Source: a virus (taxonomy: Duplodnaviria; Heunggongvirae; Uroviricota; Caudoviricetes). From it: DNA of 12,948 bases. Below the pieces are notes generated by a model. It searched no databases. It saw only the letters and a list, made by a program, of their open reading frames with translations, and was not told where the DNA came from. The DNA is taken from the IMG/VR virus record IMGVR_UViG_2671180986_000009; one strand, 5' to 3'. A program made the position numbers and the translations under genes. Shown piece by piece: positions 471-12,769 of this stretch. How positions within the stretch are numbered: the stretch's first letter is position 1; every line of letters begins with the position of its first letter.

Positions 471-3400
471 TGTACAATCCTCCATCCCGACGCGATGACT
501 GCATAATTGACACAACCCTGCTGTCGATCAGATCCACCAGTCCCCTGGCTGAGCGCGCATCTATCTCGCCATTGCTCCCTTGATTCTGAATGCTGATGTG
601 ATACACGGGAGAATAAACAAATCCACCGCCACCATTCACATTTCCAATGGCCCTGACCCCAAGAGAGCCGTCCGCTGCCCGTGTCAGTGGCATGATTGCT
701 TCAGGCCCGGCCTCGCCCATCAACCCGGCACCTTTCGCAAAAGCAAAATACGTCGGTGTATCCACAATAGTGTTACTGTAAGCACTCAGATTTGCCGATG
801 TGTAAACACCACCTTTTGCGTTTGCCACTGCCCCCGAAATCCATCCGCCGACCGTACCAAGCCACCCTCCGGCACCGGAGAGTGATTTCAGTCCGTTAAC
901 AATGGCTGCATTCATCAGAATTTTTGAAACTTCCCGGAGAACTGAACTCCCCCAGTTCCTCCAGTCCACAACATTCCCGGCCAGTGCATCGGAAATATTT
1001 GATACCAGCCCGTCCATCGTGGAAACGACAGCATCTGCCGCCTGTGAAGCATAATCGGTGGCACTGTCTGCCCAGTTGGTCAGTCCCTCCTGGAGTCCGG
1101 CATTCCAGTTATTACGTAAAGCATCGGCCTTTGCATAATAATTCTGCTGATCGCTGAGACGCTCTTCCAGATATTTTTTATTCAGTTCTTTCTCCTGTTT
1201 CCACAGGGCTTCTTCAATTTCTCCGGCCTGATACTGTCTCAGCAGCTCGTTATTTTTCTGCTCAAACGCCTGCCGGATACTCCACATTTCCTGGAGTCGT
1301 TCACGCATCCGTGAGCCTTCACCATATCCCAACAACTGCGCTTCGTCAGATGCCCGGGCACTGGCATTACTGTCCGCCAGACTGCTCTCATACGCAGCAA
1401 GCTGCTCACGAATCTTTTTCTGGTCGATGAGTGCTGCATTCTGCAAAAGCGTTTTTTTCTGCGCTTCTGACAGGGTTGATAATTCGCCCTGACTGACCTG
1501 ATATTTCATCTTAGCCAGTTCAGTATTCTGCCCTGCCAGTGCTATTTGTTCTTTTTGCTGTTTAATCAGCCGTTTATAAATATCTTCTGTTTTTTCCGCT
1601 TCGGTCTTTTTATGCGCTTTGGGTTTATTTGCCTGGTTATTTCGCCAGGCATCCAGTGAGTTATTGATATAATTCTGTCTGGCTGTCTGATATGCCTCTC
1701 CCACAAAGCCGAGATCATCCGNNNNNNNNNNNNNNNNNNNNNNNNNNNNNNNNNNNNNNNNNNNNNNNNNNNNNNNNNNNNNNNNNNNNNNNNNNNNNNN
1801 NNNNNNNNNNNNNNNNNNNNNNNNNNNNNNNNNNNNNNNNNNNNNNNNNNNNNNNNNNNNNNNNNNNNNNNNNNNNNNNNNNNNNNNNNNNNNNNNNNNN
1901 NNNNNNNNNNNNNNNNNNNNNNNNNNNNNNNNNNNNNNNNNNNNNNNNNNNNNNNNNNNNNNNNNNNNNNNNNNNNNNNNNNNNNNNNNNNNNNNNNNNN
2001 NNNNNNNNNNNNNNNNNNNNNNNNNNNNNNNNNNNNNNNNNNNNNNNNNNNNNNNNNNNNNNNNNNNNNNNNNNNNNNNNNNNNNNNNNNNNNNNNNNNN
2101 NNNNNNNNNNNNNNNNNNNNNNNNNNNNNNNNNNNNNNNNNNNNNNNNNNNNNNNNNNNNNNNNNNNNNNNNNNNNNNNNNNNNNNNNNNNNNNNNNNNN
2201 NNNNNNNNNNNNNNNNNNNNNNNNNNNNNNNNNNNNNNNNNNNNNNNNNNNNNNNNNNNNNNNNNNNNNNNNNNNNNNNNNNNNNNNNNNNNNNNNNNNN
2301 NNNNNNNNNNNNNNNNNNNNNNNNNNNNNNNNNNNNNNNNNNNNNNNNNNNNNNNNNNNNNNNNNNNNNNNNNNNNNNNNNNNNNNNNNNNNNNNNNNNN
2401 NNNNNNNNNNNNNNNNNNNNNNNNNNNNNNNNNNNNNNNNNNNNNNNNNNNNNNNNNNNNNNNNNNNNNNNNNNNNNNNNNNNNNNNNNNNNNNNNNNNN
2501 NNNNNNNNNNNNNNNNNNNNNNNNNNNNNNNNNNNNNNNNNNNNNNNNNNNNNNNNNNNNNNNNNNNNNNNNNNNNNNNNNNNNNNNNNNNNNNNNNNNN
2601 NNNNNNNNNNNNNNNNNNNNNNNNNNNNNNNNNNNNNNNNNNNNNNNNNNNNNNNNNNNNNNNNNNNNNNNNNNNNNNNNNNNNNNNNNNNNNNNNNNNN
2701 NNNNNNNNNNNNNNNNNNNNNNNNNNNNNNNNNNNNNNNNNNNNNNNNNNNNNNNNNNNNNNNNNNNNNNNNNNNNNNNNNNNNNNNNNNNNNNNNNNNN
2801 NNNNNNNNNNNNNNNNNNNNNNNNNNNNNNNNNNNNNNNNNNNNNNNNNNNNNNNNNNNNNNNNNNNNNNNNNNNNNNNNNNNNNNNNNNNNNNNNNNNN
2901 NNNNNNNNNNNNNNNNNNNNNNNNNNNNNNNNNNNNNNNNNNNNNNNNNNNNNNNNNNNNNNNNNNNNNNNNNNNNNNNNNNNNNNNNNNNNNNNNNNNN
3001 NNNNNNNNNNNNNNNNNNNNNNNNNNNNNNNNNNNNNNNNNNNNNNNNNNNNNNNNNNNNNNNNNNNNNNNNNNNNNNNNNNNNNNNNNNNNNNNNNNNN
3101 NNNNNNNNNNNNNNNNNNNNNNNNNNNNNNNNNNNNNNNNNNNNNNNNNNNNNNNNNNNNNNNNNNNNNNNNNNNNNNNNNNNNNNNNNNNNNNNNNNNN
3201 NNNNNNNNNNNNNNNNNNNNNNNNNNNNNNNNNNNNNNNNNNNNNNNNNNNNNNNNNNNNNNNNNNNNNNNNNNNNNNNNNNNNNNNNNNNNNNNNNNNN
3301 NNNNNNNNNNNNNNNNNNNNNNNNNNNNNNNNNNNNNNNNNNNNNNNNNNNNNNNNNNNNNNNNNNNNNNNNNNNNNNNNNNNNNNNNNNNNNNNNNNNN

Positions 3401-4049
3401 NNNNNNNNNNNNNNNNNNNNNNNNNNNNNNNNNNNNNNNNNNNNNNNNNNNNNNNNNNNNNNNNNNNNNNNNNNNNNNNNNNNNNGTGATCACCGAACTG
3501 GCTTCTGCTGTACTGGCACCGGATAATTTCAGGCCCGTGGAGATCGCCTCGGTGACNNNNNNNNNNNNNNNNNNNNNNNNNNNNNNNTTTCAGTACCTCC
3601 TCAGAACTGTAACCATACTCCCGCATGGAAGCTGCAGAGCGGGCAAAAAGGCTGGCGTTATCAGAAAAAGCCGTCCCCGTTCTCTGGCTGATCGCCATTA
3701 ATTCACGCTGTGATGACTGAAAATCATCACTGGACTGTGAGGCCTGCTTCAGACGGGCATTTACTGAATTCCACTCATCGGCGAGAGAAATAAGATGACC
3801 GGTAGCAAAAGCCCCGGCAAATGCCCCCGCCATGTTCAGTGCCGAAGATTTAGCTGTATTTATCTGATCCGTCACTTCTGCCAGTGCACGCCGCATTTCA
3901 CGGGATGCAGCAGCGGACTGTCGGCCTCCGTTCTGCATGGTACGGTAGTAATCCTGCCCCATACGCGAAGCCCGGGAGATCTCTGACTGGAATGACCGGG
4001 AATTTGCCGAGATTTTAATAATCAGTTCACGTAATGTCGCCACACTCAT
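463..4049 (-). CDS. Tail tape measure protein (lambda gpH-like); interior largely N-masked
   Basis: N-terminal segment from ATG 4047-4049 reads MSVATLRELIIKIS...; unmasked island 3486-3556 reads VTEAISTGLKLSGASTAEASSVI; C-terminal 413 aa (463-1704) is coiled-coil rich and ends ...RRDGGLYSA, resembling the lambda gpH C-terminus (...RDGGLFSGGGR). The three unmasked pieces lie in different coordinate frames, so continuity across the masks cannot be verified. Confidence 0.75.
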
Positions 4050-4059
4050 TCTCCGGACG

Positions 4060-4081
4060 AAAAAAAACCGCCGAAGCGGTT
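4060..4081 (-). terminator. Intrinsic (rho-independent) terminator between the G-T gene and the tape measure gene
   Basis: Minus strand reads AACCGC-TTCG-GCGGTT followed by T8: a GC-rich stem, 4-nt loop and U-tract, lying between the T stop (4090-4092) and the tape measure start (4049). Confidence 0.6.
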
Positions 4082-4089
4082 ATGTTGAC

Positions 4090-4405
4090 TCACTGAGACA
4101 CTATTAAAAGCGCGTTTTCCAGTCCAGCAAATGGATCTGATACGCCTTCTGTCTGCTCCTTCTCCCACTGAAGAAGCGCATCATTCAGTGGCACTTTGAC
4201 CCCCTGCGCACCGTAAACAGCTGAAACAATCTGGGCAGCCCGGATATCAGCCCGTTCGTCCCCCAGCGGGCTGAACCTGTCAAATTCTGCCCACATCATG
4301 ATTTCTGATGCGGACATTTCCCGGCGTAACTCTGACAATGTGCGCCCCATCCTGAGCGCCAGCATCATCAGAAAACGCATCCCCGGAAGCGCTACTTTTT
4401 TTTAA
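4090..4405 (-). CDS. T segment of the tail assembly chaperone, expressed as a G-T fusion by -1 frameshift
   Basis: The ORF (MRFLMMLALRMGRTLSELRREMSASEIMMWAEFDR...) resembles the phage tail assembly protein T family. It lies in the -1 frame relative to the G ORF and begins immediately downstream of the A_AAA_AAG slippery site. The conventional start of this frame is blocked by a TAA just upstream of the slip site. Confidence 0.75.
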
Positions 4406-4608
4406 CCTCGCCAGCATCACTGATCAGTTCCAGAGACTGCCGAAGAAGCCGCGCANNNNNNNNNNNNNNNNNNNNNNNNNNNNNNNNNNCCGGGCCATAC
4501 ACGGCAATCACCTGTTCACGATCATCCACTGAAAATACAGGTTGCAGTCCGGTATCACACAGAACATCGATGAACAGTTCAACATCCGCTTCCAGATTTC
4601 GGCGGGCG
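4392..4608 (-). CDS. Tail assembly chaperone G (lambda gpG-like); partial, N-terminus masked, 34-nt internal mask
   Basis: Only one minus-strand frame is open on each side of the 4456-4489 mask and it is the same coordinate frame: ARRNLEADVELFIDVLCDTGLQPVFSVDDREQVIAVYGP...ARLLRQSLELISDAGEVKKK*, with TAG at 4392-4394. Position between the major tail and tape measure genes and the frameshift site support the call. Confidence 0.7.
4395..4401 (-). promoter_or_regulatory. Programmed -1 ribosomal frameshift slippery heptamer A_AAA_AAG (G to G-T)
   Basis: Minus strand reads GTT AAA AAA AAG TAG at the end of the G frame (run of 8 A's at 4396-4403). Slipping back one base puts the ribosome in the T frame (..K K V A L P G M R F L..). 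The position at the 3' end of G, just before its stop, is as expected for tail chaperone frameshifting. Confidence 0.75.
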
Positions 4609-4843
4609 NNNNNNNNNNNNNNNNNNNNNNNNNNNNNNNNNNNNNNNNNNNNNNNNNNNNNNNNNNNNNNNNNNNNNNNNNNNNNNNNNNNNNNNNNNNN
4701 NNNNNNNNNNNNNNNNNNNNNNNNNNNNNNNNNNNNNNNNNNNNNNNNNNNNNNNNNNNNNNNNNNNNNNNNNNNNNNNNNNNNNNNNNNNNNNNNNNNN
4801 NNNNNNNNNNNNNNNNNNNNNNNNNNNNNNNNNNNNNNNNNNN

Positions 4844-5542
4844 GACGGTAACAGTGCAGGAAGTAGAGGTCACCTTGTTAACAGGACTTGCTGAATCAGA
4901 AATCTCGCAGGTATACGCACCGGCATCACCGGATGCTGCTGATGCCTTACTGAACGTTGCCGCCGTCTGTCCGGAAACAGGAGAACCACCTTTTTTCCAG
5001 GCATAAGAATAAGGCGGCACACCACCCGCAGCCTCAACCGCCATTTCAAGTTTCGCTCCGGAAGAAACCCGCAGCGTGCTTTTTAAATCGACCTTCACTT
5101 TCAGCGGCTCTGTCGTCAGCACAGGTTTACCTTTCAGGCGCAGAGAAAACGTTGCAGCCACAACACCATTGGTTCCTGCAGACCAGGTATGCTGACGCAC
5201 CTCTGCCATAAAGGTAAATCCGTTGCCTGACGGAAAAATAACTTTAAAGCCATACGTGGTGTCATTGTCATAGGCACTGCGCAACGCGTTCTGGGCAGCA
5301 TTCAGATAAAAGTTGCCTGACATGGAAATCTCTGAAGCAGCCCCAAGGCCGTTAATATTTTCCTGCTCAACAGAACACAGCGTGGTGACATCAATATCCT
5401 GCTTTTGTCCTGCGGTAAACTGCACCTCTTTGATTGTACAGCTCAGGCCAAGATAGCTGGCAGAATCCAGGGTTTCTGCTGTTACCGGTGCAGACGAAAT
5501 CATAATTTTCGTCAGTTGCGAACGCTCAAAATTAGAGGACAT
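4844..5542 (-). CDS. Major tail (tube) protein, lambda gpV-like with Ig-like C-terminal region; C-terminus masked
   Basis: ATG at 5540-5542 is preceded by AGGAG with about 7 nt spacing. Translation MSSNFERSQLTKIMISSAPVTAETL... continues to an Ig-like stretch (...PPYSYAWKKGG...GAYTCEISD...TVTV) before entering the 4609-4843 mask. Position is immediately upstream of G/G-T. Confidence 0.75.
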
Positions 5543-5579: not shown

Positions 5580-5636
5580 NNNNNNNNNNNNNNNNNNNNN
5601 NNNNNNNNNNGCGGGTGGGTAAAATCATTAATGACC

Positions 5637-5733
5637 TCAGGCTATTACCTGGAATTCAAGCGTGGCTCTGCTCAGACGGGAGTCAGGATCATAACCCTGC
5701 GCTTTAGAAATAACGGAGGGTGCCAGTTTTCTT
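5637..5733 (-). CDS. C-terminal end of a tail completion / tail terminator-like protein (gene immediately upstream of the major tail gene); remainder masked
   Basis: Open minus-strand frame ending ...RKLAPSVISKAQGYDPDSRLSRATLEFQVIA* with TGA at 5637-5639. Function is inferred only from position in the lambdoid gene order. The 6017-6039 island contains a possible ATGA stop/start junction (TGA 6033-6035, ATG 6034-6036) that may be its start. Confidence 0.4.
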
Positions 5734-6857
5734 NNNNNNNNNNNNNNNNNNNNNNNNNNNNNNNNNNNNNNNNNNNNNNNNNNNNNNNNNNNNNNNNNNN
5801 NNNNNNNNNNNNNNNNNNNNNNNNNNNNNNNNNNNNNNNNNNNNNNNNNNNNNNNNNNNNNNNNNNNNNNNNNNNNNNNNNNNNNNNNNNNNNNNNNNNN
5901 NNNNNNNNNNNNNNNNNNNNNNNNNNNNNNNNNNNNNNNNNNNNNNNNNNNNNNNNNNNNNNNNNNNNNNNNNNNNNNNNNNNNNNNNNNNNNNNNNNNN
6001 NNNNNNNNNNNNNNNNTCATCAATAGCCTGATTCATTCGNNNNNNNNNNNNNNNNNNNNNNNNNNNNNNNNNNNNNNNNNNNNNNNNNNNNNNNNNNNNN
6101 NNNNNNNNNNNNNNNNNNNNNNNNNNNNNNNNNNNNNNNNNNNNNNNNNNNNNNNNNNNNNNNNNNNNNNNNNNNNNNNNNNNNNNNNNNNNNNNNNNNN
6201 NNNNNNNNNNNNNNNNNNNNNNNNNNNNNNNNNNNNNNNNNNNNNNNNNNNNNNNNNNNNNNNNNNNNNNNNNNNNNNNNNNNNNNNNNNNNNNNNNNNN
6301 NNNNNNNNNNNNNNNNNNNNNNNNNNNNNNNNNNNNNNNNNNNNNNNNNNNNNNNNNNNNNNNNNNNNNNNNNNNNNNNNNNNNNNNNNNNNNNNNNNNN
6401 NNNNNNNNNNNNNNNNNNNNNNNNNNNNNNNNNNNNNNNNNNNNNNNNNNNNNNNNNNNNNNNNNNNNNNNNNNNNNNNNNNNNNNNNNNNNNNNNNNNN
6501 NNNNNNNNNNNNNNNNNNNNNNNNNNNNNNNNNNNNNNNNNNNNNNNNNNNNNNNNNNNNNNNNNNNNNNNNNNNNNNNNNNNNNNNNNNNNNNNNNNNN
6601 NNNNNNNNNNNNNNNNNNNNNNNNNNNNNNNNNNNNNNNNNNNNNNNNNNNNNNNNNNNNNNNNNNNNNNNNNNNNNNNNNNNNNNNNNNNNNNNNNNNN
6701 NNNNNNNNNNNNNNNNNNNNNNNNNNNNNNNNNNNNNNNNNNNNNNNNNNNNNNNNNNNNNNNNNNNNNNNNNNNNNNNNNNNNNNNNNNNNNNNNNNNN
6801 NNNNNNNNNNNNNNNNNNNNNNNNNNNNNNNNNNNNNNNNNNNNNNNNNNNNNNNNN

Positions 6858-6913
6858 CGGGCGGTGGTGACATTCAGAATAATTACGCGATCACGTAATC
6901 TGCCCGCCTGCAT
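6858..6913 (-). CDS. Head-tail adaptor / head closure protein, N-terminus only (rest masked)
   Basis: ATG at 6911-6913 is preceded by GGAGGAG with about 5 nt spacing, and overlaps the connector gene stop. Reads MQAGRLRDRVIILNVTTA, a typical N-terminus of HK97-type head-tail joining proteins. Confidence 0.5.
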
Positions 6914-6921
6914 GTCTCCTC

Positions 6922-7255
6922 CTACAAAGGAATAAAACGATAAGGCTCCAGCAGAGAAGAAAAACCAAACGGGACTGGTGCCTTGCTGACATCTGAGGAA
7001 TTTTCCCGGTTTTCGTACCAGTGCCCGACCAGCAACATGAGCGCCAGCAAAACATCATCAGCTATAAGCACCCCTTCAGGATCACCTTCCGGCACCGTCT
7101 CCTCATAAAGCTTACGGTTGATAAAATTTTCTGCCTTGCGGCAGGCAGCCCGGAAATACAGCATCAGNNNNNNNNNNNATCAGTAACTCATCATCAGTTG
7201 CATCATCTGTATCAATACGGCACTGCGCCCTGAGTTTTTCCACTATTGCTGCCAT
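6922..7255 (-). CDS. gp6-like head-tail connector protein; contains an 11-nt mask across which the reading frame changes
   Basis: ATG at 7253-7255 is preceded by AGGAG. N-terminal part reads MAAIVEKLRAQCRIDTDDATDDELL. After the 7168-7178 mask the family-like sequence continues in another frame (LMLYFRAACRKAENFINRKLYEETVPEGDPEGVLIADDVLLALMLLVGHWYENRE...PYRFIPL*), with TAG at 6922-6924. Confidence 0.65.
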
Positions 7256-12287: not shown

Positions 12288-12769
12288 CAGTCTCTCGCTT
12301 TTAAAAGCTCTGCCAGCGGATCAACATCATCCGGTCCGGCGGTATTTACTTTCGCCCGGCTTGCCGGTGACATACCAAACTCTGCAAGCATCGCCCGAAT
12401 CCGCTTCCAGGCATCAGCCTTCATCGCAGCAGCCGGGTGTGCCTTGATCAGCACATCGCCATTCTGCGTTTCCGTGCGGTAGGTATAACCCTCAACATCG
12501 AGTATTTCGCAGTGATGCCGGTATTCGGTGTAGGCTTCCACCAGTAACTCGAGCGCACGTGCATCGAGCTGAGAAATGATCCCTTCCGCATTCAGCTCTT
12601 CCGCCATTCGCCTGAACCAGTACTTCCCCTGCGCCCCTAAATGTTGCGGAATTTTAGGGAGACCTTTTTCATCCTTTTTAGCGGTTTTTTTGGAGTCTTT
12701 AACTGGCCGCTTAGAGGGGTTACCTCGTATCAAATGCAGGCGTGGCGGGGTTTTCGGGGGTCCAGACAT
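12287..12769 (-). CDS. Terminase small subunit (P27 family)
   Basis: 160-aa ORF with a basic N-terminus (MSGPPKTPPRLHLIRGNPSKRPVKDSKKTAKKDEKGLPK...), located directly upstream of and translationally coupled to the large terminase. Confidence 0.85.
   Translation of the reverse strand: MSGPPKTPPRLHLIRGNPSKRPVKDSKKTAKKDEKGLPKIPQHLGAQGKYWFRRMAEELNAEGIISQLDARALELLVEAYTEYRHHCEILDVEGYTYRTETQNGDVLIKAHPAAAMKADAWKRIRAMLAEFGMSPASRAKVNTAGPDDVDPLAELLKARD

Follow-up and report, generated by a model that had tools for sequence, protein, structure and literature searches.

A Probable Programmed -1 Ribosomal Frameshift on A_AAA_AAG Between the Tail Chaperone Genes G and T of an Escherichia coli Prophage

Introduction

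The G/G-T recoding cassette of phage tail genes was defined by Xu et al. (2004), and the G/G-T pair of lambda was described by Levin, Hendrix and Casjens (1993) and by Xu, Hendrix and Duda (2004, 2013, 2014), as these works are recounted in part in later articles (PMC5009743, PMC10885494, PMC4493119). In lambda, gpG and gpGT have separate roles and are made at a ratio of about 30:1, which is required, and neither protein is found in the virion (PMC5009743). Here we analyzed the corresponding junction in a Caudoviricetes sequence of 12,948 nucleotides (nt), the IMG/VR record IMGVR_UViG_2671180986_000009, which as a whole is called the window below. In this window the 3' end of a tail assembly chaperone gene, G, overlaps a second coding stretch, T, in the -1 frame. 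A first-pass annotation, made from the sequence alone, had proposed that T is reached by a programmed -1 frameshift on the heptamer A_AAA_AAG, yielding a G-T fusion.

A junction of this kind is already represented in surveys of bacterial recoding. ECs1801, a G gene in prophage Sp9 of E. coli O157:H7 Sakai, represents cluster A_AAA_AAG_25 of Sharma et al. (2014), which comprises 53 genes, is listed as "tail assembly chaperone; [true]" with a longer frameshift product and is the same as GeneTack programmed-frameshift cluster #10 (PMC4066793). Genes of the E. coli group strongly avoid A_AAA_AAG in phase (z = -10.1; Sharma et al. 2014, PMC4066793, Table S3). The only tRNA-Lys of E. coli (anticodon mnm5s2UUU) forms a better pairing with AAA than with AAG (Atkins et al. 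2016, PMC5009743), and A_AAG and A_AAA_AAG are therefore among the most shift-prone sequences in this organism. In E. coli reporters lacking stimulators, A_AAA_AAG shifted at 0.29% and G_GGA_AAG, the heptamer of lambda, at 0.28%; both reached about 4% with the stimulators of IS911, and 39% and 43%, respectively, with the IS3 pseudoknot (PMC4066793). Because the two heptamers were equivalent in these reporters, the exchange of a lambda-type for a dnaX-type heptamer can be taken as a neutral substitution.

Results and Discussion

The G/T junction

The arrangement of the junction, the families of both encoded halves, the gene order and the conservation of all of these among relatives indicated that a programmed -1 ribosomal frameshift on A_AAA_AAG very probably yields a G-T tail-chaperone fusion. 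All coordinates are positions in the window, and its genes lie on the minus strand. From 4409 to 4392, the minus strand reads GAG GTT AAA AAA AAG TAG, preceded by GGC, and this is the end of gene G, as the first-pass annotation had read it. The slippery heptamer A_AAA_AAG occupies 4401-4395, in phase with G, so that two tRNA-Lys would be expected to slip by -1 in tandem, and the stop codon of G (TAG, read as UAG; 4394-4392) follows it directly. The heptamer is contained in a homopolymer run of eight A's (AAA AAA AA-G; 4403-4396), which is also a possible minor site of RNA-polymerase slippage.

In the -1 frame, T is closed by a TAA codon at 4404-4402, which borders the heptamer on its 5' side. 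This stop had been placed just upstream of the A run; it does close the frame, but its two A's are the first of the run, so that it does not lie strictly upstream. After this TAA, the -1 frame is open for 103 codons, until a TGA at 4092-4090, and the overlap of G and T amounts to 7 nt, exactly A_AAA_AAG. As in the described cassette, an in-phase slippery heptamer of the form X_XXY_YYZ thus lies within the overlap. The T segment that would be entered after a slip (GTA GCG CTT ... TGA; 4090-4395) adds 101 residues to G, and the fusion built in silico was 224 amino acids long, with a mass of about 24.8 kDa as against about 13.7 kDa for G. Reading across the junction in this way gave ...GEVKKKVALPGMRFLMM..., which is exactly the fusion sequence predicted by the first reading, and the predicted Glu-C junction peptide of G-T is VKKKVALPGMRFLMM....

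The window contained six copies of AAAAAAG, with 2.1 expected, indicating that the bare heptamer is not rare here. The copy at 4401-4395 was the sole in-phase A_AAA_AAG on the coding strand of the window. After this site the -1 frame stays open for 101 codons, versus 3-25 codons at six other internal sites with in-phase slippery heptamers, and no other in-phase slippery heptamer in a tail gene was followed by a long open -1 frame.

Protein families and gene order

Gene G extends over 4392-4823, its start being approximate, as it falls inside a masked region. G is masked in the window at 4456-4489 and at 4609-4843, and the complete gene was therefore taken from PhiR49_2 (locus L001, 2693-3064), a phage with 99.5% identity, in which G encodes 123 amino acids. 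Relative to PhiR49_2, 34 N's replace 4 nt in the first of these runs and 235 N's replace 205 nt in the second; both are 30 nt too long and preserve the frame. Window coordinates upstream of 4455 are consequently not collinear with those of relatives, which is the reason that the G start at about 4823 is approximate.

Residues 1-123 of G matched Pfam PF06222 (Phage_TAC_1) over model positions 1-124 (E = 2.4e-58, 195.9 bits, cut-off 25). G also matched phrog_344 and, at E = 4.6e-49, the structure PDB 2OB9, that of the HK97 tail assembly chaperone gp13 (PMC9603447). In the Pfam search, other chaperone families, including that of lambda gpG, gave no match to G at E <= 0.01. The T segment matched PF06223 (Phage_tail_T, the lambda minor tail protein T) at E = 4.3e-19 (69.1 bits, cut-off 25.9), with residues 30-98 of the -1 frame aligned to model positions 1-69 of 73, and it matched phrog_337 at 9.5e-40. 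NCBIfam gave no hit for either G or T. A further family, phrog_14766, has 224 positions and covered both halves collinearly, with G at 1-121 and T at 123-220; phage databases therefore already contain annotated G-T fusions.

Immediately upstream of G lies the gene for the major tail (tube) protein with a C-terminal Ig-like domain (4838-5542, approximate, 3' end masked), which gave Pfam matches to Ig_2/Ig_3 and weak matches to Phage_TTP_11/Phage_tail_2. The tape-measure gene (1566-4043) follows T; it is largely N-masked, and its GTG start at 4043-4041 was assigned according to the annotation of homologues. The PhiR49_2 homologue of this gene matched Pfam Phage_HK97_TLTM (1.9e-94), TMP_3 and Tape_meas_lam_C. 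The order tail tube, G, T, tape measure, which is that of the cassette, was found both in the window and in its relatives L001, L003 and L084-L093. The families of both halves, this synteny and the conserved two-frame arrangement described below supported the earlier assignment of the locus to the conserved tail-chaperone G-T frameshift.

Conservation of the two-frame arrangement

A tblastn search with the predicted fusion matched 235 phage records, and the full-length matches, with identities as low as 36%, were all split into two pieces, indicating two reading frames. Junction sequences were compared for ten diverged phages and for 39 loci of different bacterial species; of these loci, 37 were counted as intact and two (L108 and L120) were set aside as visibly degraded. 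T was in the -1 frame at each of the 37 intact loci, and each carried an in-phase A_AAG or A_AAC, read in the G frame, within the overlap; both features also held in the phages of Vibrio, Halomonas and Burkholderia. The full motif was A_AAA_AAG at 15 of them, G_GGA_AAG at five and G_GGA_AAC at two, and the other 15 had the tetramer only, either of the HK97 type (CGG GAA AAG) or of a Klebsiella/Pantoea type (GCA AAG TAA). The first-pass annotation had set the dnaX-type heptamer apart from that of lambda; A_AAA_AAG is indeed present, but it is no departure, being the most frequent motif of this G family. Among phages, A_AAA_AAG was found in YYZ-2008 and other Stx phages, in Vibrio phage Pm34 and in Burkholderia phages phiE125 and phi644-2, and G_GGA_AAG in mEp390 and ECP1. 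The two-frame arrangement together with an in-phase slip motif was kept down to about 27-36% identity, the length of the A run ranged from 3 to 9, and a stop codon followed the slip motif directly in most relatives, not in all.

From the slip site to the first AUG, the -1 frame encodes a peptide that was conserved across lineages as KV..PG.(R/K)FLM, and in phiE125 this peptide is encoded inside the G/T overlap. Conservation of a peptide upstream of the AUGs indicates that this stretch is translated, and hence that it is reached by frameshifting. In HK106, an HK97-like phage with 61% identity, the region is annotated as a two-piece joined coding sequence (CDS), "similar to HK97 Gp14". All 80 IMG/VR copies kept TTAAAAAAAAGTAG, the A8G-TAG junction, while flanking bases varied; as these copies are all 100% identical in G, they are informative only on the invariance of the junction.

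Several relatives showed other states of the junction. In Leclercia adecarboxylata (L108) and Ca. Symbiopectobacterium endolongispinus (L120), G is broken far upstream of the usual junction, by a premature stop or a change of frame, and these are probably decaying prophages. A number of loci had lost the heptamer and kept A_AAG with a stop (AAA GCA AAG TAA, GAG GCA AAG TAA or GAA AAG TAA), namely L087, L110-L112 (Klebsiella/Raoultella), L099, L114, L117, L122, L124 and L129; in the Klebsiella type, an AUG stands 5 nt after the G stop (AAG TAA AATG). Such lineages may rely on slippage of a single tRNA beside the stop codon, or may have shifted towards termination-reinitiation for T. In Halomonas phage vB_HmeY_H4907 (L091, 990-999), the junction reads GCA AAA AAA AAC TAA, with a run of nine A's (A_AAA_AAA / A_AAA_AAC). 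This phage may use or add RNA-polymerase slippage, nine A's being a length at which it is plausible.

Comparison with described systems

By its families, synteny and junction, the locus is assigned to the conserved G/G-T recoding cassette, specifically to the HK97 gp13/gp14 family. As in lambda, a short product and a C-terminally extended fusion are predicted, the slip motif ends in A_AAG, T belongs to PF06223 and no strong stimulator is known. Lambda differs in its heptamer, G_GGA_AAG instead of A_AAA_AAG, the two being functionally equivalent in E. coli reporters. G here is of the HK97 gp13 type (Phage_TAC_1), and here, in contrast to lambda, the G stop directly follows the heptamer and the overlap is only 7 nt long.

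With HK97 gp13/gp14, the locus shares the G family (about 61-65% identity), the T family, the synteny, the HK97-type tape measure and the head module. The structure of HK97 gp13 is reportedly the work of Pell and colleagues, from 2013. The HK97-type junction differs, reading ...CGG GAA AAG UCU CAA CCC CCG GCG UAA, with only A_AAG in phase; G runs on for five codons past the site, giving an overlap of 49 nt as opposed to 7 nt here, and an extra small gene (gp15) precedes the terminator. In those HK97-type loci with CGG, the phase of GGGAAAAG does not fit a classic X_XXY_YYZ heptamer. The HK97-type loci in our set were L084, L086, L095-L097, L100, L104 and L109, of which L097 has CAG GAA AAG, and HK106 has its joined product annotated despite lacking an in-phase classic heptamer.

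The Sakai Sp9 pair ECs1801/ECs1802 resembles the locus in having a G with 68% identity, a junction that reads ...AAA AAG UAG followed by T in the -1 frame, and a terminator-like hairpin before the tape-measure gene. It differs in having a run of six A's (AGA AAA AAG TAG) instead of eight, an overlap of 22 nt instead of 7 nt and a lambda-like head module. The E. coli dnaX gene (tau/gamma) shares the heptamer A_AAA_AAG and its tandem slippage of tRNA-Lys. In dnaX, however, an upstream Shine-Dalgarno (SD) sequence about 10 nt 5' and a stem-loop about 6 nt 3' of the site support an efficiency of about 50%, and the frameshift product is the shorter one. Here such stimulators were not detected, the product is longer, a low efficiency is expected, and the two systems are not homologous. 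With the slip chemistry of dnaX and neither its SD sequence nor its stem-loop, the site does not represent a dnaX-type cassette.

Stimulators and alternative explanations

A number of observations weigh against a programmed ribosomal frameshift at this site, and they include the length of the A run and the annotation of T as a gene of its own, which are considered with the alternatives below. The support for this particular prophage is at the sequence level. The first-pass annotation had reasoned that any stimulatory structure would lie between 4300 and 4390, and neither RNA folding nor a covariation analysis of 41 distinct relatives supported one there. The 95 nt after the site folded no better than shuffled sequences (z = -1.3), with a value of z = -2.5 for the first 65 nt. 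Folding predicted a hairpin inside T, with an outer stem at 4372-4363/4340-4331 and an inner stem GCGCUC/GGGCGC at 4359-4354/4347-4342. Between the heptamer and this hairpin lie 22 nt (to the outer stem) or 35 nt (to the inner stem), while the hairpin spacers in Table S8 of Sharma et al. are 3-9 nt (PMC4066793). Over the 41 relatives, the inner helix had 81% of its cells paired with zero compensatory changes, and the outer helix had 55% paired, near the slid controls. On its spacing, the weak z and the lack of covariation, this hairpin was rejected as a canonical stimulator. For cluster A_AAA_AAG_25 likewise, the predicted hairpin does not exceed the local average in stability (ddG/nt 0.020; Sharma et al. 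2014, PMC4066793). As an upstream SD stimulator, the sole candidate was a GAGG 4 nt 5' of the heptamer, which is not conserved in other lineages and falls outside the range of 6-17 nt used by Sharma et al. (PMC4066793); this candidate was rejected. As unstimulated A_AAA_AAG gave only 0.29% in the reporter, the yield of G-T could be very low.

The codons at the hairpin inside T were nonetheless unusual for enterics. The inner stem, GCGCUC(C)...(G)GGGCGC, encodes ALR(M/L)GR, and among the 41 distinct sequences the second Leu was CUC or CUU in 35, Gly was GGG in 28 and Ala was GCG in 37. The first Leu was CUG in 26 of the 41, and synonymous sites of the adjacent Thr and Leu were scrambled. The "LGK" lineages (Burkholderia, Halomonas, Xenorhabdus) lacked the hairpin; in the others it lay 3' of the slip site at an unvarying distance of about 35 nt. 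Its outer stem, in the window, spans the internal AUGs. These codons could reflect a constraint at the RNA level or simply shared ancestry. The hairpin might mask the internal AUGs at FLM against independent initiation of T, or might act on the frameshifting ribosome at long range. That it is a selected RNA element that tunes G-T non-canonically, with transcription-level slippage on the A8 run as a possible further input to the GT:G ratio, appears unlikely to us.

Slippage of RNA polymerase would account for the same protein. If the polymerase added one A on the A8 run (a T8 template), the fusion ...KKKVALPG... would result without any shift of the ribosome, and an identical product makes polymerase slippage a possible contributor. 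Runs of eight A's are productive in some organisms, as in human apoB, where eight A's lead to about 10% corrected product (PMC1088944), and A8 recurs at this junction in Serratia, Pectobacterium, Brenneria, Symbiopectobacterium and this E. coli prophage, with A9 in the Halomonas phage. In many bacteria, however, selection against slippage-prone runs becomes evident at 9 nt (PMC1088944), and in E. coli ribosomes have been proven to shift on A_AAA_AAG (PMC5009743, PMC4066793). What the family keeps is the reading phase of A_AAG and not the length of the run, which at the same position is 3 (G_GGA_AAG), 4-5 (GAA AAG, GCA AAG), 6 or 7 in other members. Polymerase slippage has no requirement for phase and is negligible on runs as short as these. 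Since the run varies from 3 to 9 with the phase preserved, ribosomal slippage is favored over transcriptional slippage, which we regard as very unlikely to be the main route. The reading phase would be equally superfluous if T were translated on its own, from the AUG at 4368-4366 (the M of the conserved FLM) or from that at 4380-4378, perhaps coupled to termination of G 14-26 nt upstream, giving a free T of 92-96 amino acids and leaving the heptamer as an incidental by-product of a Lys-Lys-Lys tail. The first-pass annotation had held that T can only be made by slippage, which is too strong given these two in-frame AUGs; it stood insofar as neither start is well supported. RefSeq/PGAP and GenBank phage records do carry a free-standing T CDS from the AUG at 4368, the start of the annotated 92-amino-acid "protein T", a GGGG(A) that pairs with the anti-SD sequence at -5.7 kcal/mol lies 11 nt before it, and in Klebsiella-type relatives a degraded heptamer (GCA AAG TAA) coincides with an AUG 5 nt past the G stop. 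When SD pairing was computed at every T-frame start codon and in 36 relatives, however, this GGGG proved to be mis-spaced for both starts (0 nt for 4380, 11 nt for 4368), and pairing before the conserved FLM AUG averaged -0.9 kcal/mol in the relatives, weaker than at random AUGs (-2.9 kcal/mol). The AUG at 4380 is replaced by V, I, T or L in other lineages. T thus overlaps the 3' end of G in the -1 frame without a convincing start of its own.

Independent genes would also have no need of the in-phase A_AAG or A_AAC found with a -1 arrangement at all 37 intact loci, and the conserved peptide upstream of the AUGs, which in phiE125-type phages lies inside the overlap, would go unexplained. The fused form is accepted in phrog_14766 and in the join of HK106, and in lambda the T domain is modelled as working within gpGT (PMC5009743). 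Independent initiation of T is in our judgment highly improbable as the explanation of this junction. Homopolymers are error-prone in sequencing, and some relatives are degraded (L108 and L120, and the copy with an IS21 element by the module in E. coli FDAARGOS_943), which would be in keeping with a single G/T open reading frame (ORF) that was broken by a sequencing error or by a frameshift mutation in a dead prophage. The junction, however, did not differ among 80 independent IMG/VR contigs and phage isolates; matches to the locus occur in about 900 complete E. coli genomes, whose junctions were not inspected individually. The two-frame arrangement extends across genera with different heptamers, and G alone corresponds to the crystallized HK97 gp13. 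An artefact or decay is hardly credible against this record.

Proposed mechanism and efficiency

From this evidence we infer that slippage occurs at the heptamer, and the steps, yields and protein functions given here are predictions of the frameshift model. Most ribosomes would read GAG GTT AAA AAA AAG, stop at UAG and release the 123-amino-acid G. A small fraction would move back by one base on A_AAA_AAG while the AAA and AAG codons are in the P and A sites, as in the canonical model (Atkins et al. 2016), and both tRNA-Lys would re-pair in the -1 frame. The slipped ribosomes would continue with GUA GCG CUU ... for 101 more codons, producing the 224-amino-acid G-T. The adjacent G stop may contribute to the shift if it is slow to decode. 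As no dedicated stimulator was found, frameshifting is expected to be inefficient, at probably about 0.3% to a few per cent. As in lambda, the tape measure would be coated by the G part of both proteins and the tail-tube protein would be recruited by the T part; a low ratio of GT to G would allow the tail to assemble correctly, and neither protein would be present in the virion.

Neighboring genes and masked regions

Further upstream of the tube gene, the window holds an HK97-like head module consisting of the small and large terminase, portal, S78 protease and capsid genes. The module is that of a temperate E. coli phage or prophage and matches 11 phage records. The prophage locus was found in 902 of 5,426 complete E. 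coli genomes (about 17%) at 90-99.8% identity, and it was always chromosomal. In the copy of E. coli FDAARGOS_943, the IS21 element (istB; L003, 1-584) directly adjoins the neck and tail genes, and the head module seems to be interrupted or replaced.

A second slippery heptamer was observed among the head genes. In-phase T_TTA_AAA lies at 12299-12305 (minus strand), three codons before the stop of the small-terminase gene (TerS), and the -1 frame at this point is that of the large terminase (TerL), whose start overlaps the TerS stop in a TGATG at 12289-12285. A -1 slip would fuse TerS to TerL. T_TTA_AAA gives only background levels in E. coli reporters (0.099% without stimulators), TerL has an AUG of its own, and the occurrence of this heptamer at the terminase junction is probably a coincidence.

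Between the T stop and the start of the tape-measure gene lies a hairpin resembling an intrinsic terminator (AACCGCTTCGGCGGTT, then a U-run), with its stem at 4081-4066 and the U-run extending to about 4060. The first-pass annotation was correct in placing the hairpin at 4060-4081 downstream of the T stop and not at the slip site. At the equivalent position, Sakai Sp9 has a hairpin of this kind whose stem differs in sequence (L094, about 20690-20720), and in HK106 (L084, 1528-1550) the terminator is annotated as rho-independent. This points to a conserved partial terminator by which the tape-measure and distal tail genes would be expressed less than the head, tube and G genes.

Eight runs in the window are masked with N's, at 1722-3485, 3557-3587, 4456-4489, 4609-4843, 5580-5610, 5734-6016, 6040-6857 and 7168-7178. 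Because the lengths of N-runs do not match the sequence that they replace, ORFs listed across them (e.g., 4508-5542 and 5704-6873) are in part artefacts.

Implications for annotation

The G-T frameshift is textbook recoding, and the use of A_AAA_AAG in this G family has already been catalogued, so that nothing biologically new is claimed here. The finding bears on how these genes are annotated. In the RefSeq record (L003) and in most of the GenBank phage records (L001, L002 and L085-L093) that we inspected, T is given as "phage tail assembly protein T" or as "DUF4035 domain-containing protein", starting at an internal AUG and carrying no ribosomal-slippage join; in vB_EcoM-606R7 (L002), the region is split into three "tail assembly chaperone" CDSs, and only HK106 among the inspected records has the join. 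With T annotated separately and without a join, the predicted 224-amino-acid G-T is missing from the corresponding protein sets. This gap in the inspected records concerns a module that is carried by about one-sixth of complete E. coli genomes, and the series of junctions within this G family could be used to benchmark frameshift predictors, PRFect among them.

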